This document shows positions 789-33,980 of a stretch of DNA of 64,000 bases, in pieces. The stretch spans positions 15,328 to 79,327 of the forward strand of contig CAKPOS010000007.1 of NCBI GenBank assembly GCA_934176955.1, given 5' to 3'. This DNA comes from an uncultured Bacilli bacterium. GTDB lineage: Bacteria > Bacillota_I > Bacilli_A > RF39 > UBA660. Positions within the stretch are counted from its first letter, which is position 1; every line of letters begins with the position of its first letter. A model generated the notes under the pieces. The model searched no databases. It was not told the origin of the DNA and worked only from the letters and a program-made list of their open reading frames with translations. Position numbers and translations under genes: made by a program.

Positions 789-872
789 GAAATAATTGAA
801 TTTTTATTTCTTTTTTTTTATATCTATGTTATAATTTTTTTGAGATATTTATTTGTGAAAGGTGTTTGATTT

Positions 873-1670: not shown

Positions 1671-1689
1671 ATGATTAGGAGGTGTAGTT

Positions 1690-3717: not shown

Positions 3718-3801
3718 TTATTAATTGCAGTTTCGTTTATTAATCAAAATTTTATATAAGTATTTTATGTTTATAAGAAAATAAGAGGAGTGTGATATAT
3801 A

Positions 3802-6441: not shown

Positions 6442-6461
6442 TATAAAGTGGTGATGTATTT

Positions 6462-8720: not shown

Positions 8721-8728
8721 GTGAATAT

Positions 8729-16042: not shown

Positions 16043-16810
16043 ATGAATAAGTATTTTGTTTATCCAAAGAAAAAGAAGTCAAAAAAGCATTTGTTTTCTT
16101 TTCTTTTATATCTTTTTTTCGTTTGCTTTATTTTTGCTTTTTTCTTTATTTATTATTTTCATCGTACTTTAGGTCCAGGATTAATTCGGTGTGCGGAGGA
16201 TGAGGTAGAAAAGCTTAGTGTACTAACTTTAAACAATGGAGTTAGGAAATACATGGCTAATCATGATATGGGGGATATTCTTCAAATTGTGAGAAAAGAA
16301 AATGGAGATATTTCCTTAGTTCGCTATGATACTAAAAAATTAAATCAGTTTACGATTGAACTTACGTCTTTATTGACTAAGGATTTGGATTTGCTGGTTA
16401 AGGGAAATTTTGAAGATCTTGATTTAGATATTGGGAGGATATCTAGTAATTCTTATTTGAAAGTTGATGAGGGTATTTTATTTATGATTTCTTTGGGAAG
16501 TGCTACTGGGAATAGTTTACTTGCGAATATTGGACCAAAGATTCCTCTTAATCTTAGTGTAATTGGTAATGTTCAAACTGATGTTCATAGTAAGGTTACA
16601 AATTATGGTCTTAATAATGCAATGATAGAGATTTTTGTAGATGTTCAAATGCAGATGGTTATTCAAATGCCGTTTTTGTCTAAGAAGGTTAAGATTAAAA
16701 AGTCTATTCCTCTTACGATGGAGATGGTTCAGGGAGAGATTCCTAATTATTATTTAGATAGTGAAAGTAAGGATAATTCCTCTATTAAAAATAGTGTTGG
16801 TAATCATTAA
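16043..16810 (+). CDS. yunB: Sporulation protein YunB
   Basis: N-terminal TM. The C-terminal block GNSLLANIGPKIPLNLSVIGNVQTDVHSKVTNYGLNNAMIEIFVDV...MVQGEIPNYY closely follows the YunB pattern as remembered from Bacillus. Confidence 0.7.
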   Translation: MNKYFVYPKKKKSKKHLFSFLLYLFFVCFIFAFFFIYYFHRTLGPGLIRCAEDEVEKLSVLTLNNGVRKYMANHDMGDILQIVRKENGDISLVRYDTKKLNQFTIELTSLLTKDLDLLVKGNFEDLDLDIGRISSNSYLKVDEGILFMISLGSATGNSLLANIGPKIPLNLSVIGNVQTDVHSKVTNYGLNNAMIEIFVDVQMQMVIQMPFLSKKVKIKKSIPLTMEMVQGEIPNYYLDSESKDNSSIKNSVGNH

Positions 16811-16996
16811 GATACTGATGTTGGTAAAATACTGATAGAGAATGTTGATGAGGGAATAAGCTTTAGAATAAAGAATAAGATAAAAAGTTTTATTTTTTTG
16901 AAGTAAATTGTTTAAATTTTAAAAAAAAAATGTTATGATGTTATTAGGATATGGAGGGGTAGATTAGTTGAGAAGGATATGGAGGATTTAGAATAG

Positions 16997-17695
16997 ATGA
17001 GAAGGTTTTATAAAGTTTGGCAATACCTTGGTTTATTTTTCTTTTTTCTTTTTCCTATTATTGTAAAAGCTGATATGTGTAAGGAAGAAGATGTTGCTAA
17101 TTTAAAGGTGCTTGCAGATAATATTTCTGTTCATTATGAATATTTAGATGCTGATAATGAGTCTTTAGATTGGGGAAATACCATTCCTTATGGTTATAAT
17201 TATGCAATTACAGTATCAGGACTTAGTGATGGTATGTATTTTACTAGTATTGGAGATGTTAGTCATGAATTTCATTATTCTAATACAAGTAATGGGAGTG
17301 TTACTTATTATGTTCAAGATGAAGGGACAGGATTAGATATAAGATTTTATCCTGATAATTGTTACAGTAGTTATACTATTAAGAATGTTAAAATTGATTT
17401 ACCTATTTTTAATGAGTATTATTATACAGCTGAATGTGATGAGATAAGAGATAAAAAGATAAATTTAGATGTATGTCAAAAAACAATTCCTAAAGATTTA
17501 ATTAAAGATAGTGATGATTTTTATAATTCGGTTAATAAATATTTGAAAGTTGATATTGGTGATGATGGTTCTATTTTTTATAGGATTCAATATTGGCTTT
17601 CTAGTCCTTTGATTATTATTGGTGGAATTGCGGTTATTGTTGCTATTGTTATTATTATTGTTGTGAGATATATAAAAAGGAGTCGATTAGATTGA
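16997..17695 (+). CDS. Secreted, C-terminally membrane-anchored protein (first gene of Tad-like cluster)
   Basis: Signal peptide (LGLFFFFLFPIIVKA/DM). Cys-containing ectodomain. C-terminal TM IIIGGIAVIVAIVIIIVV followed by a basic tail. Stop overlaps the next gene's TTG start. Confidence 0.5.
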   Translation: MRRFYKVWQYLGLFFFFLFPIIVKADMCKEEDVANLKVLADNISVHYEYLDADNESLDWGNTIPYGYNYAITVSGLSDGMYFTSIGDVSHEFHYSNTSNGSVTYYVQDEGTGLDIRFYPDNCYSSYTIKNVKIDLPIFNEYYYTAECDEIRDKKINLDVCQKTIPKDLIKDSDDFYNSVNKYLKVDIGDDGSIFYRIQYWLSSPLIIIGGIAVIVAIVIIIVVRYIKRSRLD

Positions 17696-20175
17696 AGAAG
17701 TTAGTGAACTATTTTGTATTTTTAATTGTGTTTTTAGTATGTATTCCGATACGTAGTGTATTTGCTGCTGCAGATTATAAGATTAGTTATGATGTTACAG
17801 AATTTAGCATTACAAAGGAAGAGATTATTTTTAAGGGATTTTCTTTTTTAGACCATATGGATAATTATGGTGGAAGAAATATGAAAACTTATATTGCGGC
17901 ATATAGTGGAGGTTGGAACAGTCAGTGGAATAATATTAATAAATGTAAGAGTTCTAAGCATTGTTATGTTGTAGAGTCAACACCTTCGAGTTCATATGAT
18001 TTATATTTTATTCGTTGTATTGGTGGTGCTTGTACAGAAAAAAATCGTGCACAAAGAGCTAGAAATTTAAAAAATGGTACAGAAAAATATGAATTAAATA
18101 CATGTAATCATTCAGGCAGTGCAAGTGGAGTTTATTATCCAGACAGTCATTGTGCTTATCACAATGTTGGTTTTGCCGTTAAGTTTGATTTTGCTAAAGT
18201 AAAAGAAAAATTTTCTAATTCAACAGTTCATTTTAGAATTATTACGAAAGTAAAAAGTTCTTCTAGTACAAAAATTGATAGTAGTGATATTGGTATTATC
18301 CCCAATTCTTGTAAAAGTGTTTTTGGTAAGAGTTGTAATACAAAGAAAGAAGATGCTAAGTATAGTTACAATTATAAAGTTACTTCTAAGGTAGAATCTG
18401 GAGGAAAAACTTACGATGTTAAAGAAAAAAGAAAAATGACTGTTACTTTAGGTGGAATATCTGATAAGGTACAATTTACTGCTGATCAAGCTTCTGGATC
18501 GTATGGAAGTGCTCAGTCTGGGAATAATTCATATGCTAATAATATTAGGGGACGTATGTTTAATTATGGTGCAACTTATACAGTAACAAATGTGGAAAAA
18601 TTTTCTAGTGGTTGGAACAATTGGAAAGGGGATAGAACTGGTACTGTTGCTGGAAGACTTTTCTATTTAGAGGGAATTAATGGTGATTCAGGTGATAAAG
18701 GTTGGGGCTGGAGTGCTTGGGTTAAGTCATCAGGTGATTTAGCGTTAAAACTTAAAGATGAAATTGATAAAACTTGTAATGGTTGTAATTGTGAAGATGG
18801 ACAAGCTGTGACTTGTGTTGGTGGAAATTGTAATTATGATGAAGAGACTTGTAAGAATGATACTACGGTTAAAGATTTAGAGACAAATAAAGATACGGCT
18901 ACTCAAAATACTTGTAAAAATGCTGAAAACGTTGTCGTTAATTATGATGAAGTGTTGCATGATACATATTATTATCCTGTTGATAAGAGCGTTATTGATT
19001 CAACTTTAGGAGATAATACTGCTGCAACTTCTAATACTGGATTGCAATCTTCAGGTGGAAATTATTGGGTTCCTATTGATTTAAGTGTTGTTGTTAATAT
19101 TAAGCAAACATTTAATGTTAAATTAAATGAAAAATTTTATGAACAAATGAGAAAAAGTGTTAAATCTGGTCAGCCTTTCTATTTTTCGGTTGATTATGAT
19201 ACTCAGCTTTCTGTTTCAGGATATAGTAGTAGGTATGATACTTCTTCTAATGAAAACTCAGGGACATCTCAATATAATACATATAATAATGTTCTTACTT
19301 TTAATGTACGTGATAATAAAACTGGTGTGATAACGGAAAGAAGGGTTCTTATTTCTTTAAAAGAAGGAGATACTATTTATAATGAGGTTGGTGGACAATC
19401 TACTTCATATGGAACAGGGGTATATCAAGATATTGTTAATAAAAATGCTTCTTATAGTATAAGTGATTCTGTTGATAAAATGACAGTTTCTTTCCCTGAT
19501 ACCAATAAACCAACTCAGATTAATAGTGGTGCAGGTATCTTTACTACTATTGATGATCTTGCTCAAAATTCTAGAATTGGAAAATATAAAGTAAATCAAG
19601 GATGGCTTAGCAATAATGGAGAAGGTAAGATTGTATATGGAAATAAGACGTCTGGTTATGATGTTACTAATGGTGATGTTAGTATGTACTATGTTTCACC
19701 AACTTGGAAAACTGGGGAAGATTTTAAAGTTAAAATTTATGGTAAATTTGGTATTCCTGGAAAAACTGATTTTACTTATGATGCTACTTGTCATTTGAAT
19801 GTTATTAATGAAATACAAGATACTAAGAAGTTAAGATATCGTTCAATTGATACTTCTACACCTTTTCCTAAAGGAGAAAGTAGTTATCCTGAGAATTGGA
19901 AAGAATATATTGATAGTAATGGTTTAAATAGAATTACAGGAAATTCATTTAGTGCTATTGGTTATCAAACTAATTTCTTTAAAAATAAGAGTGCTATTGA
20001 TGGTTTAAAGACTACTTATGGAGATTATTATTCATATAAAGATATGTCTACTGATGGTAGTGCTACTAGTTTGGTTGTTCGTAATAGAGGAATAAATGAC
20101 TTATTTTCTAAAATTAATGGTAATCATTGTAAAGGTGGATTATATGATCCATCTTGTGATAAAGTTCAAAATTGA
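17692..20175 (+). CDS. Large secreted Cys-rich protein (827 aa), possible pilus-associated adhesin
   Basis: Signal peptide (CIPIRSVFA/AADY). Many Cys, including the CNGCNCEDGQAVTCVGGNCNYDEETC cluster. No enzymatic motif recognised. Translationally coupled to the flanking cluster genes. Confidence 0.45.
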   Translation: MKKLVNYFVFLIVFLVCIPIRSVFAAADYKISYDVTEFSITKEEIIFKGFSFLDHMDNYGGRNMKTYIAAYSGGWNSQWNNINKCKSSKHCYVVESTPSSSYDLYFIRCIGGACTEKNRAQRARNLKNGTEKYELNTCNHSGSASGVYYPDSHCAYHNVGFAVKFDFAKVKEKFSNSTVHFRIITKVKSSSSTKIDSSDIGIIPNSCKSVFGKSCNTKKEDAKYSYNYKVTSKVESGGKTYDVKEKRKMTVTLGGISDKVQFTADQASGSYGSAQSGNNSYANNIRGRMFNYGATYTVTNVEKFSSGWNNWKGDRTGTVAGRLFYLEGINGDSGDKGWGWSAWVKSSGDLALKLKDEIDKTCNGCNCEDGQAVTCVGGNCNYDEETCKNDTTVKDLETNKDTATQNTCKNAENVVVNYDEVLHDTYYYPVDKSVIDSTLGDNTAATSNTGLQSSGGNYWVPIDLSVVVNIKQTFNVKLNEKFYEQMRKSVKSGQPFYFSVDYDTQLSVSGYSSRYDTSSNENSGTSQYNTYNNVLTFNVRDNKTGVITERRVLISLKEGDTIYNEVGGQSTSYGTGVYQDIVNKNASYSISDSVDKMTVSFPDTNKPTQINSGAGIFTTIDDLAQNSRIGKYKVNQGWLSNNGEGKIVYGNKTSGYDVTNGDVSMYYVSPTWKTGEDFKVKIYGKFGIPGKTDFTYDATCHLNVINEIQDTKKLRYRSIDTSTPFPKGESSYPENWKEYIDSNGLNRITGNSFSAIGYQTNFFKNKSAIDGLKTTYGDYYSYKDMSTDGSATSLVVRNRGINDLFSKINGNHCKGGLYDPSCDKVQN

Positions 20176-20191
20176 TGGAGGTGAAGTATAG

Positions 20192-20641
20192 ATGAAATAT
20201 GCTTATTTAAGTTTGGGTATAATTCTAGTTGGTATTCTGGGGTTATCATTTATTACTTTCTTTCAAAATGTTACGATTAATAATGAAAGTGAGTATTATG
20301 TTTTGAAAGAGTCGGTAGAAGCTTCTATGTATGAATCAATTGATATGAGTTATTATATGACAACAGGAAAGTTAAAAATTTTAGAAGAAAAATTTGTTGC
20401 TAATTGTACTAGAAGATTTTATTCAAGTATTGAAGGAAATAGTAATGGTTATTCTTTATCTTTCTATGATATTATGGAAAGTCCTTCTAAAGTAAGTGTA
20501 GTGGCAACTAGTAAAACGGATAATTATCAACTGGGATTTAGTTCTAATGTATCTAGTGCTGATATTCAAAATAAATTAAGTGGAATTTTGGAATTTGATC
20601 CAGATGGTGGCTATGGTTGGGATTTTTTGGAAAGTAGATAA
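20192..20641 (+). CDS. Small N-terminally anchored protein of the Tad-like cluster
   Basis: Single N-terminal TM (YLSLGIILVGILGLSFITFF) and RBS GGAGGTGAAG. Function unknown. Confidence 0.4.
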   Translation: MKYAYLSLGIILVGILGLSFITFFQNVTINNESEYYVLKESVEASMYESIDMSYYMTTGKLKILEEKFVANCTRRFYSSIEGNSNGYSLSFYDIMESPSKVSVVATSKTDNYQLGFSSNVSSADIQNKLSGILEFDPDGGYGWDFLESR

Positions 20642-20667
20642 AATAGTAAATAAAAGGAGGGATAAGA

Positions 20668-21597
20668 ATGAATTTATCTAGTTCATTAAAAAAATTTGTT
20701 AGTAATAAAAATACAATTACTATTATTGGTGTGGTTTTGTGTATTATTATCTTATATTGGGGATATAATTTTAGAATTAATCAAAAAGTTTCTTTATCAA
20801 AGGTTCCTTATGCTAATCAAACGATTCAACCTAGAACTAAAATTACTTCAGATATGATTTCTTTTATGAATGTTCCAGCATCATTTATTAAAGGTAGTTA
20901 TTATTCTAGTTCTGATCAAATTGAAGGTAAATATGCTAAGTCTGATGTTATGATAGCAGAGGGAAGTATATTTTATACTGATTTTTTGACAGATAGTTCT
21001 AATGTTTCTAATTCGGCATTTAGTAGCGTTAAATCGAATGAAACTGTAATTAGTTATAAAGTAGATATGGATGCTACTTATGCAAATAGTATGATGCCTG
21101 GAGATATTATTAATGTTTATTTGAAAGCTAAAAGTGACGATGGAACAATTATGTTTGGTAAATTTATTGGTAATGTTAAAATTTTAGATATGAAAGATGC
21201 AAATGGTCAGAGAGTATTTGAAAATACTACTGAGGCTAGGAGTCCTGCTTATATGTTATTTGCTTTACCAGAAGATATGCATTTATTATTCAGAAAAGCT
21301 CTTTATTTAAGAAATGGTTATGATGTAGAGTTAATTTTAGTTCCTAATACTGAAAAAGTGGAAAAGGATGCTGATGTTTATGTAAGTAGTAAAGATATTC
21401 AAGACTTTATTAATGATAAGACAAAGATGGTTTCTGTTGATGAAATCTTATCTAGTACAGAGGATAAGGTAAATACTACTGATAATAATGATAATAAGAC
21501 GAATGATACTGATAGTAAATCAACTAATCAATCAAATGGTACTAAAAATCAATCAAATGGTACTAAAAATCAATCAAATGGTACTAAAAATCAATAA
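20668..21597 (+). CDS. CpaB/RcpC-like Flp pilus assembly protein (paralogue 1) with C-terminal NQSNGTK repeats
   Basis: N-terminal TM, then a SAF-like segment (VPYANQTIQPRTKITSDMISFMNVPASFIKGSYY...IEGKYAKSDVMIAEGSIF). Located upstream of a CpaF-like ATPase. Confidence 0.6.
   Translation: MNLSSSLKKFVSNKNTITIIGVVLCIIILYWGYNFRINQKVSLSKVPYANQTIQPRTKITSDMISFMNVPASFIKGSYYSSSDQIEGKYAKSDVMIAEGSIFYTDFLTDSSNVSNSAFSSVKSNETVISYKVDMDATYANSMMPGDIINVYLKAKSDDGTIMFGKFIGNVKILDMKDANGQRVFENTTEARSPAYMLFALPEDMHLLFRKALYLRNGYDVELILVPNTEKVEKDADVYVSSKDIQDFINDKTKMVSVDEILSSTEDKVNTTDNNDNKTNDTDSKSTNQSNGTKNQSNGTKNQSNGTKNQ
21526..21594 (+). repeat. 21-bp tandem repeat x3.3 (AATCAATCAAATGGTACTAAA) inside the CpaB-like gene
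   Basis: Three identical units at 21526-21588 plus a partial unit, encoding (NQSNGTK)n at the C-terminus. Confidence 0.9.
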
Positions 21598-21644
21598 CAT
21601 ATGGTTATAGATAATTAAGTATTTTAATTAAAGGAGGAAATATT

Positions 21645-22490
21645 TTGAAAGATTCATTTAGAAAATTTTTAAGTAATAAGAATACAGTTACAATTGTTGG
21701 TGTTATCTTGTGTGTAATTATTTTATTTATTGGTTATTATTATCGAATAAATCAAAAAGTTGCTTTAACAAGAGTACCTTATGCTAATCAGGAGATTAAA
21801 CCTAAGACAAAGATTACGGCAAATATGATTAATTATATGAATGTTCCTGCATCTTTTCTTGTTGGTAGTTATTATAGTGCTCAAGAGGATATTGTAGGTA
21901 AATATTCTCAATATAATACAAAGATTATTGAAGGTAGTTTATTTTATAAAGATTTACTTACTACTTCTAATTTGTTACCTAATTCAGCGTTTTTAAATAT
22001 TAAGAAGAATGAGACTGTAGTTAATTATAAAGTTAATATGGATACGACTTATGCAAATAGCATGCAGCCTGATGATGTAATTAATATTTATTTTAAAGCA
22101 AAAAGTGATGATGGAACGATTATGTTTGGTAAATTTATTAGTAATATTACTATTTTAGATGTAAAAGATAGTGAAGGTAGACATGTATTTGATGATTCTT
22201 CTGAAGTTAAAACTCCTGCTTATATGATTTTTGCTTTACCAGAAGATATGCATTTATTGTTTAGAAAGGCTGTTTATTTAAGTGATAGTTATGGAGTAGA
22301 GTTAATTTTAGTACCTAATACGCAAGAACTTACTAAAGAAAATACGGTTTATGTAAATAGTAAGGATATTCAGAATTTTATTAATGAAAAGACAAAAATG
22401 GTTTCTGTTGATGAAATTTTAACTAGTACGAAGGATGAAGTTACTACCGATAGTGATACTAATAATAGTGATAGAAATGGTAATTCTTAA
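21645..22490 (+). CDS. CpaB/RcpC-like Flp pilus assembly protein (paralogue 2)
   Basis: TTG start after AAGGAGG. Collinear with and highly similar to the preceding gene (e.g. DDGTIMFGKFI and ALPEDMHLLFRKA.YL are shared). Confidence 0.6.
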   Translation: MKDSFRKFLSNKNTVTIVGVILCVIILFIGYYYRINQKVALTRVPYANQEIKPKTKITANMINYMNVPASFLVGSYYSAQEDIVGKYSQYNTKIIEGSLFYKDLLTTSNLLPNSAFLNIKKNETVVNYKVNMDTTYANSMQPDDVINIYFKAKSDDGTIMFGKFISNITILDVKDSEGRHVFDDSSEVKTPAYMIFALPEDMHLLFRKAVYLSDSYGVELILVPNTQELTKENTVYVNSKDIQNFINEKTKMVSVDEILTSTKDEVTTDSDTNNSDRNGNS

Positions 22491-22501
22491 GGAGTGGTTC
22501 G

Positions 22502-24073
22502 ATGAAAAATGAATTTACACAAGTTGATTTTGGGGCTCTTCAACCATATTTGGATAATGATGATATTACAGATATTTCTTATAGTAATGGAGGACAAGTA
22601 TGGTTAAAATCTTTATCAAAAGGTGTATATCGTGTAGAAAATCCTGCTGTCGATAATGCTTTTATGGAAAAAATGGCTTTTCAGTGCGCTAATTCTATGG
22701 GGAAATCTTTTAATATGGCTAATCCTTTTTTGGATGCTGAGAGTGCTGAACTTCGTATGAACTTTGTTCATGAATCTATTGCTAGGAATGGAATTGCAGT
22801 TTTAATTCGTAAGACACCTGCTAAGATAAGATTAGAGAAAGATAAAATTATTAAAGAGGATTATATTCGATTAGATATTCATGATTTTATTTTAAAATGT
22901 GTAGAAGGGCATTGCAATATTTTGGTAAGTGGAGAGACTGGTAGTGGTAAAACTGAATTTGTTAAGTATATGGCTGCTCATACGAAATATGATGAAAAAA
23001 TTATTACAATAGAAGATACATTGGAACTTCATTTGGATAGAATTTTTCCTGAGAGAGATATTGTTGCGATGAAGACGAATAATATTGCTAGCTATGCTGA
23101 CGTGCTTGTTACTTGTATGAGACAGAATCCAAGATGGATTTTACTTTCTGAGGTTCGTAGTGCTGAGGCTGTTATGGCGGTTAGAGATTCAATTTCTTCT
23201 GGACATAATATTTTATCTACTATTCATGCCGATAAGGCTGAATCGATTCCTAGTCGTTTATATAGTTTGTTAGAATCTAGTATTGATATGGATCAATTTT
23301 TGAGAAGTATTCATCGTTATGTTCAACTTGGGGTTCATATTAAAGGATATTATAGTAAAGAATTACAGCGATTTAAGAGAGAAGTTTCGGAAGTAGTAGA
23401 GTTTTATGTTGATGATAATAATAAACCTAAATATCAAATTATTTATAAAAGGACACCTGATGGCAAAACAGAAATTCATAATCCTACTCAATATTTACTT
23501 GGTTATTTGGAAAGTCAGGGAGTTATTATGCCACCTGATATATTAGTAAAACAAGAATTTAGAGAGCAGAGTATTTCAGATGAAAAAAATAATTTCAATA
23601 CAATGAACTATCCTTCTTCTGTTCAGTCTAATGTTGTTCAGCAAAGTAATTTAAATTCAATGAACACAAAAAATAATGTTACAAATAGTAGTAATATTAG
23701 TTCAAATGGAGAAAGAAATATGACAAATCTTGCTTCAATAAATTCTAATTTTCAAAATGGTAATGTAGGTGTGGTTGAAAATTCTCAAACTATTCATTCG
23801 AGAAATTTATCTGCAAATCAAGTGAATGGAAATAACAATAATTTTTCAAATTTTGCTTATTTAAATAATGTTGGTGTTCAAAGTAAAAGTGTTCCTTATC
23901 AAAACTCTTCTATGAATTATTCTATGGGGGCTAATAATGTTCAAAATGCGCATGCTGTGAATAGAAATAATAATTCTATCCCTGTTCGTGATAATATTTC
24001 TAGTTCTTCTTCTTTGGGTATTGTGAATTCCAATAAAATAGTGTATAATAATTCTAATGTTAATGTAGAGTGA
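22502..24073 (+). CDS. CpaF/TadA-family secretion ATPase with ~170-aa Asn/Ser-rich C-terminal tail
   Basis: Walker A SGETGSGKT, ITIEDTLEL (Asp box), RQNPRWILLSEVR (Walker B region) and STIHAD (His box) are typical of VirB11/CpaF-type hexameric ATPases. Confidence 0.85.
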   Translation: MKNEFTQVDFGALQPYLDNDDITDISYSNGGQVWLKSLSKGVYRVENPAVDNAFMEKMAFQCANSMGKSFNMANPFLDAESAELRMNFVHESIARNGIAVLIRKTPAKIRLEKDKIIKEDYIRLDIHDFILKCVEGHCNILVSGETGSGKTEFVKYMAAHTKYDEKIITIEDTLELHLDRIFPERDIVAMKTNNIASYADVLVTCMRQNPRWILLSEVRSAEAVMAVRDSISSGHNILSTIHADKAESIPSRLYSLLESSIDMDQFLRSIHRYVQLGVHIKGYYSKELQRFKREVSEVVEFYVDDNNKPKYQIIYKRTPDGKTEIHNPTQYLLGYLESQGVIMPPDILVKQEFREQSISDEKNNFNTMNYPSSVQSNVVQQSNLNSMNTKNNVTNSSNISSNGERNMTNLASINSNFQNGNVGVVENSQTIHSRNLSANQVNGNNNNFSNFAYLNNVGVQSKSVPYQNSSMNYSMGANNVQNAHAVNRNNNSIPVRDNISSSSSLGIVNSNKIVYNNSNVNVE

Positions 24074-24074
24074 G

Positions 24075-24977
24075 GTGATTAGTTTGGAAATTATTATTGT
24101 TGGTATTATATTAATTTTTATTATTACTTATCGTTCAAGTACTGGTAGTGGAGTTTATAAATTTGTTAATGAACAAAAAAATCAGTTATATGATAAATAT
24201 GCACCTTATTCTTATAAAGAAATGAGAAGAAAAATAAAGGATTTAGGTCTTGATTATACTCCGAGACAATATTTTATACAAATTGTTTTGCTTGCTGGAA
24301 TTGCTGCTGTAATTGGATATTTATATTTTTATAGTTTAATTATTTCTATTATTTATGCAGTGATTGCTATTGCTTTTGTTCCTTATATTTCGTATCTTCG
24401 TTCTAAGAGGCAATATAGTGAATTTATTTTTGAACAAATTCAAGTTTATGTTACTAATACTATTATGGAATTTGCAACTACGCAAGCTTTTATTAAATCA
24501 CTTGAAGGTGTAGTGGAATCTGGTGTTTTAGAAGATCCTGTTTTGTCTGATGTTAAGACAATGATTGCTCTTTCTTATGAAAAAGGGGATGTAAATGATT
24601 CTATAGCTTATATGAATGCTAAGTATCCTTATTTTATGGTTAAGAATATGCATCAATTGTTTTTACAAGTTACAAAAGAGGGTGCTAAAGATACAGAAGA
24701 AACATTTGATAATATGTTGACCGATATTGATGCTCTTGTAGAAGGTGTATATAGAGATAGGATGGATAGGTCTGAATTTCATAAGCAATTTTTGGTTTTT
24801 GGTGTTGCTTTATATGGAATTGTTATGTTGATTCAGCTATTATTAGGTGTAGATTCTTACATTGCTATGTTGAATAATAAACTTATTTTAGTTTTACTTC
24901 ATGCATTAGTTATTATTAATACATTATTTCTTCTTAAAGGAGAAAAATATTATAATGAGAATGTGGGGGCTGAATAA
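24075..24977 (+). CDS. TadB-like type II secretion system F-domain membrane protein
   Basis: GTG start. N-terminal TM, cytoplasmic helical domain, and paired TMs in the middle and at the C-terminus. Immediately downstream of the CpaF-like ATPase. Confidence 0.6.
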   Translation: MISLEIIIVGIILIFIITYRSSTGSGVYKFVNEQKNQLYDKYAPYSYKEMRRKIKDLGLDYTPRQYFIQIVLLAGIAAVIGYLYFYSLIISIIYAVIAIAFVPYISYLRSKRQYSEFIFEQIQVYVTNTIMEFATTQAFIKSLEGVVESGVLEDPVLSDVKTMIALSYEKGDVNDSIAYMNAKYPYFMVKNMHQLFLQVTKEGAKDTEETFDNMLTDIDALVEGVYRDRMDRSEFHKQFLVFGVALYGIVMLIQLLLGVDSYIAMLNNKLILVLLHALVIINTLFLLKGEKYYNENVGAE

Positions 24978-25771
24978 TGATAGAGATATTTCTTATTGGT
25001 GCAATTATTTTGTTTATATTTTTTTACACGGGGAAAGTTAATTCTGGTAAGTTTGTTTATGATAATAAGGATTTCTTTTATTTATTGAAAGAAAGTGATT
25101 ATGATTTTTTGCTTTATGCAAAGTATGGGGATAAGGTTTATGATCCTAATCAGGTATTTATGAAAAGAATTCGGAATGGCGTGTTAATTACTATTTTATT
25201 TATTTTTGTATTTATTTCTGATTTATCTTTTTTAAATGTAATTTTGGGACTTGTTTGTGGCTTTCTTGTTTTTAAGATGCCATATATGGATTTAAAGAAA
25301 TTTTATCGTAATCATTTGAATGAAGTTGATTCTTTATTGCCTTATTATTTAAAGGGATTAGAAGTTTTAATTCAACACTATACTGTTCCTGTTGCTCTTG
25401 CTAGAAGTATAGATGATGCTCCAGAAGTCTTTAAACCAGGATTGAAAGCAATGATTGCTAAAATTGAAGCTGGAGATTCTTCTGTTCAACCGTATATGGA
25501 TTTTGCCGCAATGTATCCTGTTAGGGATTCGGTTAGAATGATGAGATTGTTATATCGTTTAGGTCTTGGTGAGCAGGAAAAAAAGCATACTCAATTGGTT
25601 GCTTTTTCGAAGAGTGTTTCTGCTTTACAACAAAAAGCAAGAGAACAAAAATATAAAAATAGATTAGATAAGATGGAAAGTATGACTATGGTAATGTTAG
25701 TTTGTACAGGTGGTGGAGGAATGATATTACTTATCGTATCTATGTTACTTTCTTTTACAGCTGTTGCGTAG
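24977..25771 (+). CDS. TadC-like type II secretion system F-domain membrane protein
   Basis: Same topology as the preceding gene. ATG overlaps the upstream stop (TAATGA). Standard TadB/TadC pairing. Confidence 0.55.
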   Translation: MIEIFLIGAIILFIFFYTGKVNSGKFVYDNKDFFYLLKESDYDFLLYAKYGDKVYDPNQVFMKRIRNGVLITILFIFVFISDLSFLNVILGLVCGFLVFKMPYMDLKKFYRNHLNEVDSLLPYYLKGLEVLIQHYTVPVALARSIDDAPEVFKPGLKAMIAKIEAGDSSVQPYMDFAAMYPVRDSVRMMRLLYRLGLGEQEKKHTQLVAFSKSVSALQQKAREQKYKNRLDKMESMTMVMLVCTGGGGMILLIVSMLLSFTAVA

Positions 25772-25806
25772 GAGAAGAAAAATATTAATAAGGGAGGTGA
25801 GACAAA

Positions 25807-25950
25807 ATGAAAGAAGCTACAGGTGAATTAAGTATGGTAGTTGTAACTATTCTTGCAATTGCCTTGATTGCAGGGGTTGTTAAATTTTTAGTTCCTCTTG
25901 CTCAGGATTATGTTGGTAATAAGTGGGCGGATATTACAACACAAGATTAA
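25807..25950 (+). CDS. Flp/type-IV-pilin-like small protein (47 aa), not in the ORF track
   Basis: GGGAGGTGAG RBS, ATG at 25807. MKEATG/ELSMVVVTILAIALIAGVVKFLVPLAQDYVGNKWADITTQD has a short charged leader ending in Gly, then a ~20-residue hydrophobic helix. Sits right after tadC. Confidence 0.6.
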   Translation: MKEATGELSMVVVTILAIALIAGVVKFLVPLAQDYVGNKWADITTQD

Positions 25951-25986
25951 TAAATGATAGGAAGTATTGAAAGGTAGGAAATTGGC

Positions 25987-26445
25987 ATGAGAGATGCATT
26001 TGGAAGTACATTTATGTTTAAAATTATTATAATATTTATTGTTTTTTATGTGTCTTTCATGACAATTGCTGTTAGCTACGCTAAGGCTTTTCGAGTGAAA
26101 AATGGAGTTATTGATATTTTAGAACAATATCAATATGATTCTGAAGGTTCAAGAAAACAAGATGTTATTAATAAGGTTGATGAATATCTAAAGTCATTTC
26201 CTTATAATGAGGGAGATAACCAAAATGTTAAAAATCTTTGTAAAAAAGATTCTCATAATGAAAATTCTTCTGAAGAAACATTTGAAAATCAATTTACTGA
26301 AAATGGTGTTTGTATCATTAGAACTGATTTAGGAGAGAATTCTGTGTTTTATGAGGTTGTTACTTATTTAGTTATTTCTTTCCCTGTATTTAGTTATGAT
26401 TTTATAATTCCTATTCGTGGAGAAACAACAACAATTAAAAATTAG
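25987..26445 (+). CDS. Pilin-like / TadE-like minor pilin candidate (paralogue 1)
   Basis: MRDAFG/STFMFKIIIIFIVFYVSFMTIAV: a short charged leader ending in Gly, then a hydrophobic helix. The C-terminal beta-rich domain is shared with the next gene (PIRGETTTI versus PVSGETKII). Confidence 0.45.
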   Translation: MRDAFGSTFMFKIIIIFIVFYVSFMTIAVSYAKAFRVKNGVIDILEQYQYDSEGSRKQDVINKVDEYLKSFPYNEGDNQNVKNLCKKDSHNENSSEETFENQFTENGVCIIRTDLGENSVFYEVVTYLVISFPVFSYDFIIPIRGETTTIKN

Positions 26446-26456
26446 GTGGTGATTTT

Positions 26457-26894
26457 GTGAAAGATGCATTTGGTGGTTCTTTTGTTTTAAGGATAATGTT
26501 GGTATTTTTTGTTGTTTTTATTTGCTTTATGACTGCATCAATTACCATTTCTAAAACTTTCCGAATAAAAAATAATATTATTAATATTTTAGAAAGATCC
26601 AATCCTAACAGTTATAGTTCAAGTACAAGGGATAGAATTGATTCTTATCTAAGTAAAGTTTCCTATAATTATGGTAGTAATGAAAATGTGGTAAATGACT
26701 GTAGAGGTACTAGTATTTCTGGAACCGATTCAGTGGATTTAACTGATTATGGAGCTTGTATTGTAACGCATAATAGTGGTGATAGAGTGTATTATAAAGT
26801 TACTGCTTATGTAGTTGTTGATTTTCCATTATTTCATATAGGAACTGTTATTCCAGTTAGTGGAGAGACTAAGATTATTTATTTAGATAGATAA
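26457..26894 (+). CDS. Pilin-like / TadE-like minor pilin candidate (paralogue 2)
   Basis: GTG start. MKDAFG/GSFVLRIMLVFFVVFICFMTASI. Paralogue of 25987-26445. Confidence 0.45.
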   Translation: MKDAFGGSFVLRIMLVFFVVFICFMTASITISKTFRIKNNIINILERSNPNSYSSSTRDRIDSYLSKVSYNYGSNENVVNDCRGTSISGTDSVDLTDYGACIVTHNSGDRVYYKVTAYVVVDFPLFHIGTVIPVSGETKIIYLDR

Positions 26895-26904
26895 AGGTGA
26901 TATA

Positions 26905-27849
26905 ATGAATGTTATTGTTTCAAATTTGAATGGTGATAAATTTGATAATTTAAATGTTGATATTATTAAATCCATTAGTGGTGAATTTACTATTGATGAG
27001 ATTGTTCAAACTTTTTCTAATTTTTTCTTTAATAAAATGTTTTTAGATATTACTGCTATTCAAAATTATACAAATATTAATAATATTAAGCAATTATCTG
27101 TTGGACTTGATGTCAGTAAAATTATTCTTTTACTTAATAATGATCCAATTGTTAATGGTGATGGTTATATTTCTAGTTTGATTAGTATGGGAATATATAA
27201 TTTTGCTAGGACAGAAGAAGAATTAATTTATCTTTATAATAATCCAAATAGTTATCGAGATGTTGCTCATTTGCAAAAAATAGCTAATGTCCAATCTTTT
27301 AATCTTGAAAAAATAGCTAGTGATGTTAGAGTTATTGGGTTTCGAAATTTTACTAGTCATGCTGGTTCGACTTCTTTAATTTATATGTTAAAGCAGCAAT
27401 TGTCTAAACATTATTATACTGTTGCTATAGAAGTAAACAAAAAAGATTTTATGTTTTATGGAGATAAAAATATGATTTCTTGTAGTGAACGAGATATTAG
27501 TAATGTCATTTTACAATATAGAGATGCCAATGTTATATTAGTTGATTTAAATAATATGGATATTTCATCTTGTCATTCTATTTGTGGAGATATTATTTAT
27601 TTAATGGAGTCTTCTGTTTTAATGATTAATAAATTAGTAATGTTGGATAATGATTGTTTTGATAAAGTATTAAATGCAAAAGTTGTGTTAAATCGTTCAT
27701 TATTAAATCAACGTGATGTTGAACAGTTAGCCAAAGAAGCTGGAATATCGTTTTTTTCTGTATTACCTCCAATGAATGATCGAGTAGATAATTCAGAAAT
27801 ATTATTTCCTTTTTTAGAAAAATTAAAATTATATAAAAAAGTATCTTAA
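26905..27849 (+). CDS. Possible TadZ/CpaE-like ParA/MinD-fold protein with degenerate P-loop
   Basis: VIGFRNFTSHAGSTSLIYMLKQQL occupies the place of the ParA-type KGGxGKT loop and ILVDLN the place of Walker B. Last gene of the cluster. Weak, position-based call. Confidence 0.3.
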   Translation: MNVIVSNLNGDKFDNLNVDIIKSISGEFTIDEIVQTFSNFFFNKMFLDITAIQNYTNINNIKQLSVGLDVSKIILLLNNDPIVNGDGYISSLISMGIYNFARTEEELIYLYNNPNSYRDVAHLQKIANVQSFNLEKIASDVRVIGFRNFTSHAGSTSLIYMLKQQLSKHYYTVAIEVNKKDFMFYGDKNMISCSERDISNVILQYRDANVILVDLNNMDISSCHSICGDIIYLMESSVLMINKLVMLDNDCFDKVLNAKVVLNRSLLNQRDVEQLAKEAGISFFSVLPPMNDRVDNSEILFPFLEKLKLYKKVS

Positions 27850-27871
27850 CTACAGGATGTAGTTTTTTTTT
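27848..27871 (+). terminator. Rho-independent terminator ending the Tad-like cluster
   Basis: AACTACA-GGA-TGTAGTT hairpin followed by T9. Confidence 0.65.
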
Positions 27872-27946: not shown

Positions 27947-29401
27947 ATGAAGAAGTATCGTTTATTTGGAGTAATATCTATTATTTTTTTATGTATTGGG
28001 CTTACTTATAAGTATTTTCAAACTGATACATTTTATATGATTAAATTAGGAGATTTTATTTATCATCATGGGATTGATTTTTTTGATCATTATTGTTGGG
28101 TAACTAAGCTACCTTATACTTATCCTCATTGGCTTTATGACTTGTTTATTTATCTAATTTATTCTAAGTCTGGTTATTTTGGAATTTATGTAAGTACTAT
28201 TGTTACTTATATTATACTTTGTTTATTTATTTATTATGTTAGTTTAAAATTAATTAAGAATGAGTTCTTTTCCTTAGTGCTTTCTATTGTTTGTGTGTTT
28301 CGATTGTCGATGTTTGCTGTTGCTAGGGCTCAATTAATTAGTTTGATTGGTTTTGTTTTAGAATTTTATTTTATTTGTAGATTAGTTGAAACTGGCAAGA
28401 AAAAGTATTCTATCTTTTTGTTTTTGATTTGTCTATTAATTGCTAATGTACATGCGACAGTTTGGCCTTTTTTCTTTATTCTTTTTCTTCCTTTTTTTGG
28501 AGAGTATATTTGTGCAGAATATTTAAAAGTGCAAAAAAATTTTAAATTAAAAATTGAAAAAGTTTCTCATATTCGATTATTAAGTATTACCTTTGGAATT
28601 AGTTTATTTTTAGGAATTTTTTCTCCAAGTAAGATATGTTATACTTATATTTTTAGAATTATGGTAGGGGATAGTCAAAAATACTTACTTGAGCATTTTC
28701 CTTTAACCGTTATTGAACATCCTTATTTTCTTATAATGATTTTAATTTTGTGTGTGGTTTTAATTTTTACTTCTACTAAAATATATTTAAGAGAATTATT
28801 TATGATAGGTGGACTAATTTTTATGTCTTTATCTTCTATTAGGCACCTTTCTTTTTTCTATACGATTGGGATTATTGAGATTAGTATTGTTTGCATGCGT
28901 GCTCTTAATGGACTTCATGATTCTACTTTTGATATTTTAGGAAAGATACTCATTGACAATAAGGGGTTATATTGCATTCTTCTTTTAGGAATAGGTATTT
29001 TTTCTTACTATCAATTTTTAAATCATTCTAAAGAAGAATTTGTTTTAAAAAAAGATTATCCTGTTGATGCAGTTAATTATGTAAAAGAAAATTTAGATGT
29101 TAAAAATATTAAGTTATATAATGGTTACAATTATGGTAGTTATTTGTTATTTCAAGATATTCCTGTTTTTATTGATGCAAGATGTGATTTGTATTTAAAG
29201 GAATTTAATGGAATGAATTATAGTATTTTTGATGAAATGGAGGATATTCCTAAAAATTATGAGAAAATTTTTAAAAAATATGGAGTTACCCATGTTTTAA
29301 TTAGTAAGAAAGAAACATTATTTCTGATTTTAAGGAAAGATGTTCATTATAAAGTTTTATATCAAGATAAGTATTTTATTTTATTTGAGAAAAATTTTTA
29401 G
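27947..29401 (+). CDS. Polytopic membrane protein, putative GT-C-type glycosyltransferase
   Basis: About 11 predicted TM helices followed by a soluble C-terminal domain. Precedes three GT-C-like paralogues. No catalytic motif firmly recognised. Confidence 0.35.
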   Translation: MKKYRLFGVISIIFLCIGLTYKYFQTDTFYMIKLGDFIYHHGIDFFDHYCWVTKLPYTYPHWLYDLFIYLIYSKSGYFGIYVSTIVTYIILCLFIYYVSLKLIKNEFFSLVLSIVCVFRLSMFAVARAQLISLIGFVLEFYFICRLVETGKKKYSIFLFLICLLIANVHATVWPFFFILFLPFFGEYICAEYLKVQKNFKLKIEKVSHIRLLSITFGISLFLGIFSPSKICYTYIFRIMVGDSQKYLLEHFPLTVIEHPYFLIMILILCVVLIFTSTKIYLRELFMIGGLIFMSLSSIRHLSFFYTIGIIEISIVCMRALNGLHDSTFDILGKILIDNKGLYCILLLGIGIFSYYQFLNHSKEEFVLKKDYPVDAVNYVKENLDVKNIKLYNGYNYGSYLLFQDIPVFIDARCDLYLKEFNGMNYSIFDEMEDIPKNYEKIFKKYGVTHVLISKKETLFLILRKDVHYKVLYQDKYFILFEKNF

Positions 29402-29415
29402 GATTGGGTGTATAA

Positions 29416-30723
29416 ATGAGAAGATTTTTTCAATATTTATTTTTGTTTTTTTTAGCTTTTTCTTTTTTCTTTTTAATTGCTATTATTAGGCCTGTGTGGT
29501 GTGATGAAATTTGGGTATATGGTTTTAGTCATAACATATCAGAAGGAATGGTAATTTATCGAGATTTTAATGCATTACAGATGCCGTTATATTTTTTTAT
29601 ATCTAGTTTTTTTCTTTTTATTTTTGGTGATTATGTTATTAGTACTCATTTGTTCGATTGTATTTTGATTGGTCTTTTATTTTTGATGATGTATAAAAAA
29701 ATTGGAATTAAATCAATATTTATTTTATTTATTCTTACTATTGGTTATAGTGGTTATAATTTATTATCTTTATTTTTATTGATGAGTATTTTATTTTTTA
29801 TTGATGCTGGTAAATATCATGATTTTCTAATAGGACTTCTTGTTGGTTTAATTTTTATTACTAAACAGAATATTGGTATTGCTTTATTTGTTCCCTATAT
29901 TTATTATTCTAAAAAGAAATTTCGGAGTATATTTTATTTTTTCATTCCATTTTTAATTATTAGTTTTTATTTTATATTGACTTCTTCGTATTTTTCTTTT
30001 TTAGACTGTGTTTTTGGGAGTATGTTTGATTTTAATCAACAAAATAAAAAACTATTTTTTTCTTTTTTATTGATTGAATTTTTTGTTATTTGTCATTTGT
30101 TAATATTGATAAATAAAAATAGGTCTTATGATAAAAGATTATTGTATACCATGTTTTTTCAAGTTATTTCTTATCCAATTTGTGATGATAGTCATTTGTT
30201 TTTAGCATTAATTCCTTATTTTTATATTTTATTTAGTTATCCATTCGATAAGAAAAAATTCTATTTTCTGTTATTTTTTATTTTTTATTCCTTTTATTCA
30301 CTTTTTTTAAAGCCATTTGATGTTTCTTTTGAAAATAATTCTTTTTATTTAAGAAATTTATCTACTGTTAAAATGGAATTTTTAGATGATTTTTCTTATT
30401 TTTCAAAAAAATATGATTATTCCTACTTTATTGATTGGCAAGCTTATGTTTATAAAATTTATTATCGAAAGCCAATTGATCGATTTGATTTTATGCTTAG
30501 TGGAAATTGTGGATATCATGGAGTGAGAAAATTGATTAAGGAAGTTGAGAATTCTTGTCAAAAGGAAACTTGTTTATTTGTTATTTATCAAGATGATTTT
30601 AATAGTTCAATCTCTCAATGGAAGGAGATTATTGATTATGTAAAAAATCATTATTCATCTATTGAGATTGATGATGGATTTTATTTGTTAGGAAATGAGG
30701 ATTATATTCATGAAAAAGAATAA
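29416..30723 (+). CDS. GT-C-like (ArnT/PMT-like) membrane glycosyltransferase, paralogue A
   Basis: First extracytoplasmic loop carries a DE motif (VWCDEIWVYGFSHNISEGMVIYRDF). Multiple TMs. C-terminal soluble domain with a conserved GNCGYHG...C...C block. Confidence 0.45.
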   Translation: MRRFFQYLFLFFLAFSFFFLIAIIRPVWCDEIWVYGFSHNISEGMVIYRDFNALQMPLYFFISSFFLFIFGDYVISTHLFDCILIGLLFLMMYKKIGIKSIFILFILTIGYSGYNLLSLFLLMSILFFIDAGKYHDFLIGLLVGLIFITKQNIGIALFVPYIYYSKKKFRSIFYFFIPFLIISFYFILTSSYFSFLDCVFGSMFDFNQQNKKLFFSFLLIEFFVICHLLILINKNRSYDKRLLYTMFFQVISYPICDDSHLFLALIPYFYILFSYPFDKKKFYFLLFFIFYSFYSLFLKPFDVSFENNSFYLRNLSTVKMEFLDDFSYFSKKYDYSYFIDWQAYVYKIYYRKPIDRFDFMLSGNCGYHGVRKLIKEVENSCQKETCLFVIYQDDFNSSISQWKEIIDYVKNHYSSIEIDDGFYLLGNEDYIHEKE

Positions 30724-32065: not shown

Positions 32066-32082
32066 AAAGAGAGGTGATTTAG

Positions 32083-33515: not shown

Positions 33516-33980
33516 ATGAAAAAGAGAATCATAATAGAAGAAGAAAATAATCCTAAGGAAAGTACTTTTCAACGAATTGTTCATCATCCATTTTTTGAGT
33601 GGCTACTGTATATGGTAGGGTATACGATTGTGTTAATTACGGTGTCGGTTTTATTTCAAAATCATTTTTATATTAATCCTAAGCATTTTGGAGTTTATGC
33701 GTTTTTGGCATCTGTTATTATTTATGTTTTGAATCAGACGATAAAGCCTATTTTGGTTTATGTTACTTTGCCAATTACGGCAATTACGATGGGGTTATTT
33801 TATCCTATTATTAATGTTTTAATTTTATATCTTGCTAGTTTTCTTTTAGGGAGTAATTTTCAAATTCATGGAATTATTTTGCCATTTTTGATTGCTATTT
33901 TGATTTCTATTTTAAATATGTTTATGGAAGGAATGATTATTAAGCCAATTATTTACAAAAGGAGAGTGAAGGATGAATAG
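33516..33980 (+). CDS. DUF360/YvlD-like (phage holin family 4-like) membrane protein
   Basis: 154 aa with four TM helices and the GY..V......F pattern. Upstream of and overlapping lgt. Confidence 0.45.
   Translation: MKKRIIIEEENNPKESTFQRIVHHPFFEWLLYMVGYTIVLITVSVLFQNHFYINPKHFGVYAFLASVIIYVLNQTIKPILVYVTLPITAITMGLFYPIINVLILYLASFLLGSNFQIHGIILPFLIAILISILNMFMEGMIIKPIIYKRRVKDE

Follow-up and report, generated by a model that had tools for sequence, protein, structure and literature searches.

We analysed a 64,000-nucleotide stretch of contig CAKPOS010000007.1 from an uncultured Bacilli bacterium (hereafter the window) and, within it, a run of twelve open reading frames (ORFs) at 16997-27849, here called g1 to g12. 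Translation and ORF listing placed all twelve on the plus strand, at the coordinates at which they had first been listed, with successive intergenic gaps from g1 to g12 of -4, 16, 26, 47, 11, 1, -1, 35, 36, 11 and 10 bp. The sequence-only reading from which we started had counted eleven genes, one too few, but its listed ORFs, their coordinates, their common direction and their tight spacing were correct. The order and strand of g3 to g12 are kept in 80 loci that we fetched from other species, so the pattern of ORFs is not a product of chance. We found that the locus encodes relatives of a Tad pilus machine, that the nearest relatives of four of its core proteins belong to the conjugation operon of pLS20-type plasmids, and that in related genomes it stands directly beside a Gram-positive type IV secretion system (T4SS). 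The twelve genes are as follows (aa, amino acids).

16997-17695, plus strand: g1, a 232-aa type I membrane protein with a signal peptide, four cysteines and a C-terminal transmembrane anchor (from its translation)
17692-20175, plus strand: g2, an 827-aa secreted protein with a signal peptide, 19 cysteines and no wall or membrane anchor (from its translation)
20192-20641, plus strand: g3, a 149-aa DUF5411 protein with an N-terminal transmembrane helix (Pfam DUF5411, E 4.6e-37)
20668-21597, plus strand: g4, a CpaB/RcpC-like protein with an N-terminal transmembrane segment, SAF and RcpC-like regions and a low-complexity tail (TIGR03177 pilus_cpaB, E 6e-7)
21645-22490, plus strand: g5, a second CpaB-like paralogue, 64% identical to g4
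22502-24073, plus strand: g6, a secretion ATPase of the TadA/CpaF/VirB11 superfamily (Pfam T2SSE, 2.6e-25)
24075-24977, plus strand: g7, a polytopic, all-helical membrane protein, TadB-like and homologous to pLS20 gene 38 (profile-profile comparison)
24977-25771, plus strand: g8, a paralogue of g7, TadC-like by position and homologous to pLS20 gene 39 (hhalign)
25807-25950, plus strand: g9, a 47-aa pilin-like protein with the N-terminus MKEATG/ELSMVVVTIL... (motif)
25987-26445, plus strand: g10, a larger pilin-like protein with the N-terminus MRDAFG/STF... (motif)
26457-26894, plus strand: g11, a paralogue of g10 (37% identical) with the N-terminus MKDAFG/GSF... (motif)
26905-27849, plus strand: g12, a TadZ-like protein with a receiver/flavodoxin-like N-domain and a ParA/MinD-class C-domain (AlphaFold, Foldseek)

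Proteins of the locus and their relatives

The secretion ATPase g6 retains intact Walker A, Asp box, Walker B and His box motifs. Its closest solved structures are CpaF (5.9e-19) and then archaeal GspE, VirB11 and FlaI, and its best NCBIfam models are VirB11 (113 bits, the top score), the TadA family (101 bits), TrbB and FlaI, all well above ComGA (74 bits), PilT, GspE (53 bits) and PilB (44 bits). Against g6, E. coli HofB reached 49 bits, compared with 84-166 bits for TadA, VirB11 and p37, the product of pLS20 gene 37. A grouping with competence (ComG) or type II secretion systems, which the sequence-only reading had named as fatal to its proposal, was ruled out through these scores. The protein lacks the N-terminal extension of CpaF and is not nearer to CpaF than to VirB11. 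In a neighbor-joining tree of 15 sequences, g6 and the p37 ATPases of pLS20-type plasmids formed a single clade with 100% bootstrap support, while this clade joined TadA or VirB11 with only 5-6% bootstrap either way. In a plasmid collection the best matches of g6 were gene 37 of the pLS20 family, labelled "VirB11", and genes of Paraclostridium and Peribacillus plasmids; identity with p37 is 33%. The C-terminal tail of g6 (23540-24073) consists of 178 residues, 49% of them Asn, Ser or Gln, and varies in length among orthologues, whose total length is 359-536 aa.

The same plasmid block holds homologues of g3, g7 and g8. g3 matches pLS20 p36 by BLASTP (9.5e-7) and, as a profile, the p36 family at 94.1%; p36 itself matches DUF5411 (E 1.4e-5). 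A widened profile of g7 matches the p38 family at 97.5%, and g8 aligns with the p39 proteins of Paraclostridium and Peribacillus at 85.7% and 89.9%, respectively (hhalign). For comparison with the Tad family, we fetched two monoderm Tad loci, those of Thermoanaerobacterium pMU3262 and of the Mycoplasmatota zrk4 plasmid. The widened g7 profile matched the two monoderm TadB proteins at 94.4% (E 9e-8, over 195 co-linear columns), while ten unrelated polytopic membrane proteins that served as negative controls remained at or below 1.1%. This link was made possible by the addition of distant g7 representatives to the profile; the g7 family is abundant at 90% identity (over 8000 clusters, none of them annotated) but narrow (319 representatives at 50% identity). 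Similarly, the paralogy of g7 and g8 is seen with widened profiles (94.5%) and not with narrow ones. Profiles of g7 and g8 found no match among PDB sequences, and neither protein matched a Pfam family.

The two CpaB-like paralogues that had been recognised from the sequence were confirmed. In addition to its pilus_cpaB match, g4 matches Pfam SAF and RcpC (each at approximately 1e-3), and the profile of the g4/g5 family aligns with the PGAP-annotated CpaB of Thermoanaerobacterium at 96.1% (hhalign, E 3.6e-9); against PDB sequences, the CpaB profile gave no match. The duplication of cpaB is genus-specific and occurs in only 5 of 80 related loci. The C terminus of g4 (21480-21597) carries four NQSNGTK repeats.

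The ParA-type fold and degenerate P-loop suspected in g12 were likewise borne out. The AlphaFold model, built from 67 sequences (pLDDT 81.7), has a SIMIBI-class C-domain, and Foldseek searches of the PDB returned ParA (3cwq, E 2.9e-5) along with HypB, UreG, MipZ, MinD and BcsQ, and PleD for the N-domain. The Walker A lysine has been lost (FRNFTSHAGSTS), GK[ST] having become G[AS]T, and the family reads KN-T-HAG[AS]T. At the level of the predicted fold, a TadZ-like two-domain layout is supported; at the level of sequence, neither a profile search of PDB sequences nor profile comparison matched g12 to ParA or TadZ, and Pfam scans of 37 orthologues returned no ParA family.

The three pilin-like proteins share a six-residue leader, M-[KR]-[DE]-[AS]-x-G, that ends in an invariant glycine. 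The form found in g9 (M-K-E-[AST]-[TS]-G-E) occurs a single time in 74 of the 75 related loci and is followed by a hydrophobic helix, and that of g10 and g11 (M-[RK]-[DE]-[AS]-[FVY]-G-[GS]) occurs in 69 of the 75, in one or two copies. Judged from the sequences, the shared glycine leader is the pattern of a putative common class III-type signal. Many g9 orthologues have a C-terminal cysteine pair, and g9 gives a faint match to the archaeal Pilin_N family (E 0.025). g10 and g11 match no Pfam family, TadE and DUF4320 included, and their profiles showed no significant similarity to p40, DUF4320 or TadE-like proteins. pLS20 p40 matches DUF4320 at E 0.006, and in the Thermoanaerobacterium Tad locus DUF4320 is annotated on a gene beside an Flp-like pilin gene.

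At the head of the locus, the start of g2 overlaps the stop of g1 by 4 bp. Counterparts of g1 (208-264 aa, 4-8 cysteines) stand before the large protein in almost every related locus, and positional equivalents of g2 range from 414 to 1134 aa with 8-35 cysteines; both are recognised in relatives mostly through position, size and cysteine content. The position of g2 is that of the pLS20 adhesin Tie, two g2 orthologues have weak VWA-domain matches, and we regard g2 as a candidate adhesin or displayed cargo. The sequence-only reading described the upstream genes as large exported proteins without recognisable domains. A Pfam scan returned no family for g1, but g3 is small and belongs to DUF5411. 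The g1-g2-g3 cassette, often with overlapping stop and start codons, precedes cpaB in nearly all related loci and is therefore part of the unit.

Two side observations concern these surface proteins. In locus L032 (3446-8629), and upstream in loci L077 and L079, two tandem g1-g2 cassettes or extra cysteine-rich secreted proteins stand before the DUF5411 gene, so duplication of the cassette may be one way in which the adhesins diversify. Furthermore, a membrane-anchored thioredoxin-like CxxC protein has homologues in 49 related loci and is absent from the window; in locus L035 its gene (4948-5457, minus strand) is divergent from g1 and lies just 5' of it. It is plausible that this protein is a disulfide-forming partner for the cysteine-rich g1, g2 and pilin C termini.

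Linkage to a type IV secretion system and vertical inheritance

Other genes of the window that bear on the locus are these.

873-1670, plus strand: a secreted protein ending in a VirB2-like hairpin of two transmembrane segments (tblastn, C terminus against 124- and 146-aa VirB2-like proteins of related clusters)
1690-3717, plus strand: a VirB6/TrbL-like polytopic protein (Pfam TrbL_4, 1.3e-7)
3802-4134, plus strand: a 110-aa protein with two transmembrane segments in the VirB3/TcpE position (kept between VirB6 and VirB4 in related clusters)
4070-6441, plus strand: a split VirB4-type ATPase, with a 196-aa N-part (4070-4660) and a 594-aa ATPase part (4657-6441) (NCBIfam VirB4_plasma)
6462-9427, plus strand: a 752-aa wall hydrolase (SpoIID, NlpC/P60 and beta-lactamase-like), then a 232-aa lipoprotein-like anchored protein (Pfam)
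16043-16810, plus strand: a YunB-domain protein directly 5' of g1 (Pfam Spore_YunB, 7.8e-26)

By sequence, the genes at 15-9427 form a complete-looking Gram-positive T4SS module, in which VirB4, the VirB6-like protein and the wall hydrolase occupy 1690-8720. The best NCBIfam matches of the VirB4- and VirB6-like proteins are to integrative and conjugative elements (ICEs) of mycoplasmas: MMCAP2_0566 (2.5e-11) and Mbov_0396 (6e-10) for the VirB6-like protein and VirB4_plasma, the family of the Mbov_0397 ICE ATPase, for VirB4 (1.7e-108 for the ATPase part and 2.5e-15 for the N-part). The N-part covers model positions 96-276 and the ATPase part 296-893; the two ORFs overlap, and the split, a point of difference from the mycoplasma ICEs, is kept across the lineage. 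Mycoplasma ICEs are mobile and carry a DDE transposase, and to our knowledge they have no Tad-like module. The VirB4 of the window is 21% identical to that of pLS20 (E 9e-27). An orthologue of the 110-aa protein in the VirB3 position has a faint TcpE match, and the wall hydrolase and lipoprotein-like protein follow VirB4 in related clusters as well.

Relatives of VirB4 were found in at least 560 stretches of a collection of species genomes, of which we kept 80 loci (71-99% identical, nearly all from the same lineage). Relatives of g6 were found in at least 435 species-level genomes, from which the 80 loci mentioned above were fetched. The latter genomes are nearly all metagenome-assembled genomes (MAGs) of uncultured gut "Bacilli", "Mycoplasmatota" or "Tenericutes", and include Clostridium sp. 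CAG:302, CAG:914, Candidatus Onthousia and one complete chromosome of 1.46 Mb. Wherever a locus captured both modules (61 of 61), the T4SS lay directly downstream of the Tad-like module and in the same direction. It comprises VirB2-, VirB3-, VirB6- and VirB4-like genes with a wall hydrolase, and in 51 of the 62 loci with room for it a VirD4 coupling protein follows (T4SS-DNA_transf, 1e-52).

In the clade of the window this arrangement has been altered. The YunB gene, which here stands before g1, has its homologue in locus L096 (16037-16771) immediately behind VirD4, where it ends the supercluster, and the sequences thus compared suggest a rearrangement resembling a circular permutation.

Several lines of evidence concern the inheritance of the cluster. 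In the 31 loci that share a TrmL flank, pairwise identity at g6, g7 and g8 rises and falls with pairwise identity at TrmL (Spearman 0.81-0.83), nearly as closely as between two housekeeping proteins (TrmL and QueH, 0.87), and g6 is the better conserved (mean identity 88.5%, versus 76% for TrmL). The TrmL flank is the same in 30 of 65 loci. As its divergence tracks that of housekeeping neighbours, the cluster is chromosomal and not recently mobile, and a recent mobile element was ruled out on the same ground. No relaxase or integrase was found within the clusters, and no integrase, relaxase or transposase adjoins them. The exposed proteins behave differently: in strain pairs with 98-99% identity at g6 and VirB4, the value falls to 49% for g1 (in a strain with a 98% identical ATPase core), 30% for g2 (in the closest strain), 40% for the VirB6-like protein and 59% for the VirB2 fusion, the last two measured against locus L088, where VirB4 is 99% identical. 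Purifying selection thus acts on a machine that is fixed in the chromosome, while its exposed parts diversify fast.

A proposed Tad-derived module at work with a T4SS

The likeness to pLS20 extends from single proteins to gene order. Genes 34-41 of pLS20, a plasmid from Bacillus subtilis, encode a large secreted adhesin, p36, the p37 ATPase, the two polytopic proteins p38 and p39 and small hydrophobic proteins, in parallel with the locus. On pLS20-type plasmids from Bacillus, Paraclostridium and Peribacillus the order is a thioester/isopeptide adhesin, small genes, a protein of 125-129 aa with an N-terminal transmembrane segment, the ATPase and then proteins of 267-281, 240-247, 120 and 47 aa, the last being exactly the size of g9; VirD4, VirB6 and VirB4 come next in the same operon. 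However, our locus has one or two cpaB genes between the DUF5411 gene and the ATPase, whereas pLS20 has neither CpaB nor a TadZ-like protein, and the thioester-domain adhesin of pLS20 is unrelated to g2. Moreover, pLS20 is a mobile plasmid with a relaxase, while the locus sits in the chromosome, is inherited vertically and was not found to have a relaxase. By its four core proteins, then, the locus belongs with the pLS20-type modules; by mobility and relaxase it does not. In the pLS20 family, Tie (gene 34) is required for mating, above all in liquid, and p37 has been annotated and discussed as a putative VirB11, with genes 36 and 38-41 given as "unknown" (PMC8557374).

With Tad/Flp systems the locus shares CpaB. 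It resembles them further in an ATPase of the TadA/CpaF class, two paralogous proteins that probably form the platform, tiny and larger pilin-like proteins and a protein with the receiver-ParA layout of TadZ/CpaE. Genuine monoderm Tad loci run cpaB-tadZ-tadA-tadB-tadC-flp; here, in contrast, the TadZ-like gene comes last in the operon and its product is without the Walker A lysine, there is no G/XXXXEY motif, no linked TadV and no Pfam T2SSF or TadE match, and the locus is linked to a T4SS. In its pilin motif and in the want of a linked peptidase, it falls outside the Tad/Flp family. The divergent monoderm Tad machine of the sequence-only reading is thus right as to descent, given the ATPase and the CpaB-, TadB- and TadZ-like proteins, but not as to a stand-alone machine, since g3, g6, g7 and g8 are homologues of pLS20 genes 36-39 and the locus is T4SS-linked. 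It bridges two known kinds of system, the Tad pilus and the conjugation-type T4SS.

A related operon may already have been noticed in other hosts. Using gene-context embedding, Miller et al. (2022) predicted a secretion-related operon in Roseburia, Ruminococcus and Eubacterium (PMC9523054). Like our locus, it comes from gut Firmicutes, is uncharacterised experimentally and contains a CpaF-type ATPase, a PilC/GspF-like protein, DUF5411 and an adhesin/invasin-like protein (PMC9523054). It differs, in a comparison by description only, in its Clostridia hosts and in that no T4SS link or pLS20 homology was described (PMC9523054).

Taken together, these findings tip us slightly towards the interpretation that the twelve genes encode a Tad-derived module for building a filament and displaying an adhesin, which works with a Gram-positive T4SS, each being one half of an envelope machine. 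Under this model, hexameric g6 would dock on a membrane platform of g7 and g8, the TadZ-like pseudo-ATPase g12 would position or scaffold the g6-g7-g8 complex, and g6 would drive membrane extraction and polymerisation of the tiny pilin g9 after cleavage of its leader. g10, g11 and perhaps g3 might be priming or tip subunits, and the CpaB-like g4 and g5 might form a conduit across the cell wall. The resulting short fibre would expose or anchor the fast-evolving, cysteine-rich g1 and g2 as a contact adhesin, with g2 presumably displayed on the fibre itself, and contact would let the linked T4SS (VirB2-, VirB3-, VirB6- and VirB4-like proteins, wall hydrolase and, in relatives, VirD4) move DNA or protein. 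The module would then be the counterpart of the pLS20 block of adhesin plus "VirB11" (genes 34-41), the two modules acting together, and would resemble in function the thin pilus, of type IVb, that IncI plasmids encode. The latter pilus, as in IncI1 R64 (pil genes, PilV tip adhesin), is a filament encoded together with a conjugative T4SS, has variable, partner-choosing adhesins and serves mainly mating in liquid; unlike our locus, it is of type IVb with PilQ and PilR, is carried on plasmids of a diderm host and owes its adhesin variants to a shufflon, not to sequence divergence.

A number of observations weigh against this interpretation. As to the pilins, g9 and 74 orthologues read MKE[AST][TS]G/E[VL][SN]MTV, with no Glu at +5 or Tyr at +6, and so do not conform to the Flp motif G/XXXXEY; in both of the genuine monoderm Tad loci that we fetched, by contrast, Flp reads G/xxxxE[YFW]. 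What had been called pilin-like thus holds for the glycine leader of all three proteins but not for the Flp motif, and the missing Glu +5 and Flp motif weaken the prediction that the leader is cleaved and that these proteins polymerise. The M[KR][DE][AS]xG leader is lacking in p40 and p41 of pLS20-type plasmids. A search of the window and of 2.88 Mb of related neighbourhoods, which did not reach the rest of the genome, where an unlinked peptidase may lie, found no multi-transmembrane ORF with the A24-type peptidase motif G-x-[GA]-D-x-[KR]. The absence of a prepilin peptidase remarked upon from the sequence thus extends to these neighbourhoods. As to the platform, Pfam T2SSF matched neither g7, g8 nor any of ten distant g7 relatives; in calibration, genuine monoderm TadB and TadC reached just E 0.03-0.1 on this family, with one exception at 4.9e-8. 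The direct comparison of g8 with TadC was not significant, and g8 is linked to TadC only through g7; of the TadB and TadC named from the sequence, it is g7 as TadB-like that stands. The AlphaFold model of g7, from a shallow alignment (pLDDT 49.6), was too poor and was left unused. As to the linkage, 21 of 52 Tad-centred loci had no T4SS gene in the 5.6-6.7 kb captured downstream; in 11 of these, all with a detectable homologue of the glycosyltransferase-like genes described below, that gene is within the captured sequence downstream of g12, mostly directly after it. In the window itself, the T4SS lies 7.5 kb upstream of the Tad-like locus, with asnS, ponA and recU between them, and there is no VirD4. 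No MobL homologue was found in 160 loci, nor any relaxase family in Pfam scans of one full cluster. Finally, Gram-positive conjugation systems appear to be pilus-free, and their mating-pair formation is largely unknown (PMC11730352).

These points bear differently on the alternatives. A stand-alone monoderm Tad/Flp pilus, used for adhesion to host mucus or surfaces and with the T4SS a mere neighbour, would account for the presence of CpaB, a TadA-class ATPase and TadB- and TadZ-like proteins, for a gene set that resembles cpaB-tadZ-tadA-tadB-tadC-flp and for the upstream gap, weak terminator and separation from the T4SS that the locus has in the window. We nevertheless consider it unlikely: the nearest relatives of g3, g6, g7 and g8 are conjugation-operon genes, the T4SS follows directly wherever both modules were captured, and genuine monoderm Flp pilins have the very motif that is missing here. 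Alternatively, there may be no filament at all, with g6 acting as the third T4SS ATPase, of VirB11 type, g7 and g8 together with the small hydrophobic proteins as subunits of the inner-membrane channel or its assembly, and g1 and g2 as Sec-exported adhesins. The annotation of p37 as VirB11 (PMC8557374), the top NCBIfam score of g6 (VirB11, 113 bits) and the 5-6% bootstrap for its placement, the lack of a peptidase and of Glu +5, and the fact that conjugation pili are unreported from Gram-positive bacteria (PMC11730352) all agree with this. However, a canonical VirB11 needs no partners of the TadB/C type, no CpaB and no TadZ, all of which have counterparts here, and a glycine leader on three proteins of different size is a hallmark of a common processing or assembly signal; we therefore hold the absence of a filament to be improbable.

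Two further alternatives concern the role or the mobility of the whole supercluster. It might be an organelle for uptake or release of DNA, in which the fibre captures DNA and the T4SS moves it across the envelope in the manner of Helicobacter ComB. Such an organelle would be of use to a gut bacterium whose genome is small. The lineage in which the supercluster has become fixed, with vertical inheritance, includes a chromosome of 1.46 Mb, neither a relaxase nor an integrase was found among the genes of the cluster, and Tad-dependent transformation has been documented in another monoderm, Micrococcus luteus (PMC4322843). Yet most relatives have VirD4, a typical export component, and DNA capture would not be expected to involve a cassette so large, hypervariable and adhesin-like, which leads us to rate this role as decidedly unlikely. 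It might also be a mobile ICE or the decaying remnant of one, merely common in these MAGs, as the matches of the T4SS proteins to mycoplasma ICE families, the variation of flanking genes between genera and the permutation-like rearrangement of the window might indicate. Against this, its divergence tracks that of housekeeping neighbours, its core genes are more conserved than those, the TrmL flank recurs, its G+C content equals that of the surroundings, its ORFs are intact and no adjacent integrase, relaxase or transposase was found; we give such an origin hardly any credence.

One broader possibility, which we put forward tentatively and think rather doubtful, is that pLS20-type T4SSs build a Tad-derived surface fibre, put together by the so-called VirB11 and TadB/C-like platform proteins and bearing the mating adhesin, and that this lineage has domesticated fibre and T4SS alike as a core, vertically inherited organelle of contact-dependent exchange between cells, with strong diversifying selection acting on its exposed parts. 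Should the "VirB11" block of pLS20 indeed be a Tad-derived filament module, it would offer a testable answer to the question of mating-pair formation, in a tractable model. If true, the filament interpretation would also explain DUF5411, and the fibre would be the "missing" conjugative pilus of Gram-positive bacteria. In evolutionary terms, the locus would stand midway between classical Tad loci and the VirB11 of diderm T4SSs, where the ATPase alone is left. For the hosts themselves, the locus and its T4SS would amount to a contact-dependent machine of 25-30 kb, which strong purifying selection maintains across relatives that come from 435 or more species of uncultured Bacilli with small genomes, and the combination of a conserved machine with a diversifying surface points to an important interaction between cells or with the host.

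Flanks, composition and neighbouring genes

Three features of the flanks follow.

16911-16939, plus strand: a candidate sigma-70-type promoter (TTTAAA, 17 nt, TG-TATGAT) in the 186-bp gap before g1 (consensus scan)
27850-27871, plus strand: a weak terminator-like hairpin, CTACA-GGA-TGTAG (stem 27850-27862), then nine T (read from the sequence)
27947-33429, plus strand: four tandem paralogues of 484, 435, 456 and 448 aa with 7-9 predicted transmembrane segments and an N-terminal DE(I)W motif (faint GT87 match, E 0.0024)

The composition of the locus, which the sequence-only reading had thought atypical, is ordinary: its G+C content (0.25-0.31) is the same as that of the flanks, in a window that ranges from 0.22 to 0.36, and an unusual nucleotide composition was accordingly ruled out. 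The terminator that had been called clean at 27848 does end in nine T, but its stem has 5 bp with only two G-C pairs, and the terminator scan left this hairpin after g12 uncalled as being below its criteria. The promoter candidate is weak, the number of promoter-like sites in the region being no higher than in shuffled sequence. A scan of the window detected no tRNA or Rfam element, and an RNA or tRNA gene as integration site was rejected for that reason. The host had also been taken for a spore-former. A YunB-domain gene and a SpoIID-domain hydrolase are indeed present, but both look tied to the secretion cluster itself, which weakens that inference.

The four tandem paralogues downstream of g12 are, from their sequences, candidate glycosyltransferases of the GT-C type and possibly an optional part of the supercluster. 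In 15 related loci a GT-C-like homologue begins approximately 50-180 bp past the end of the g12 match. Such a gene lies between g12 and the first T4SS gene in loci L015, L016 and L125, and also, farther from g12, in L014. These proteins may glycosylate pilins or adhesins.

Elsewhere in the window, a XerC/D-like tyrosine recombinase (42478-43350) is apparently a housekeeping enzyme. Directly after the GT-C-like genes come a four-transmembrane holin-family protein and Lgt (33516-34779), and in close relatives both are conserved beside the locus.

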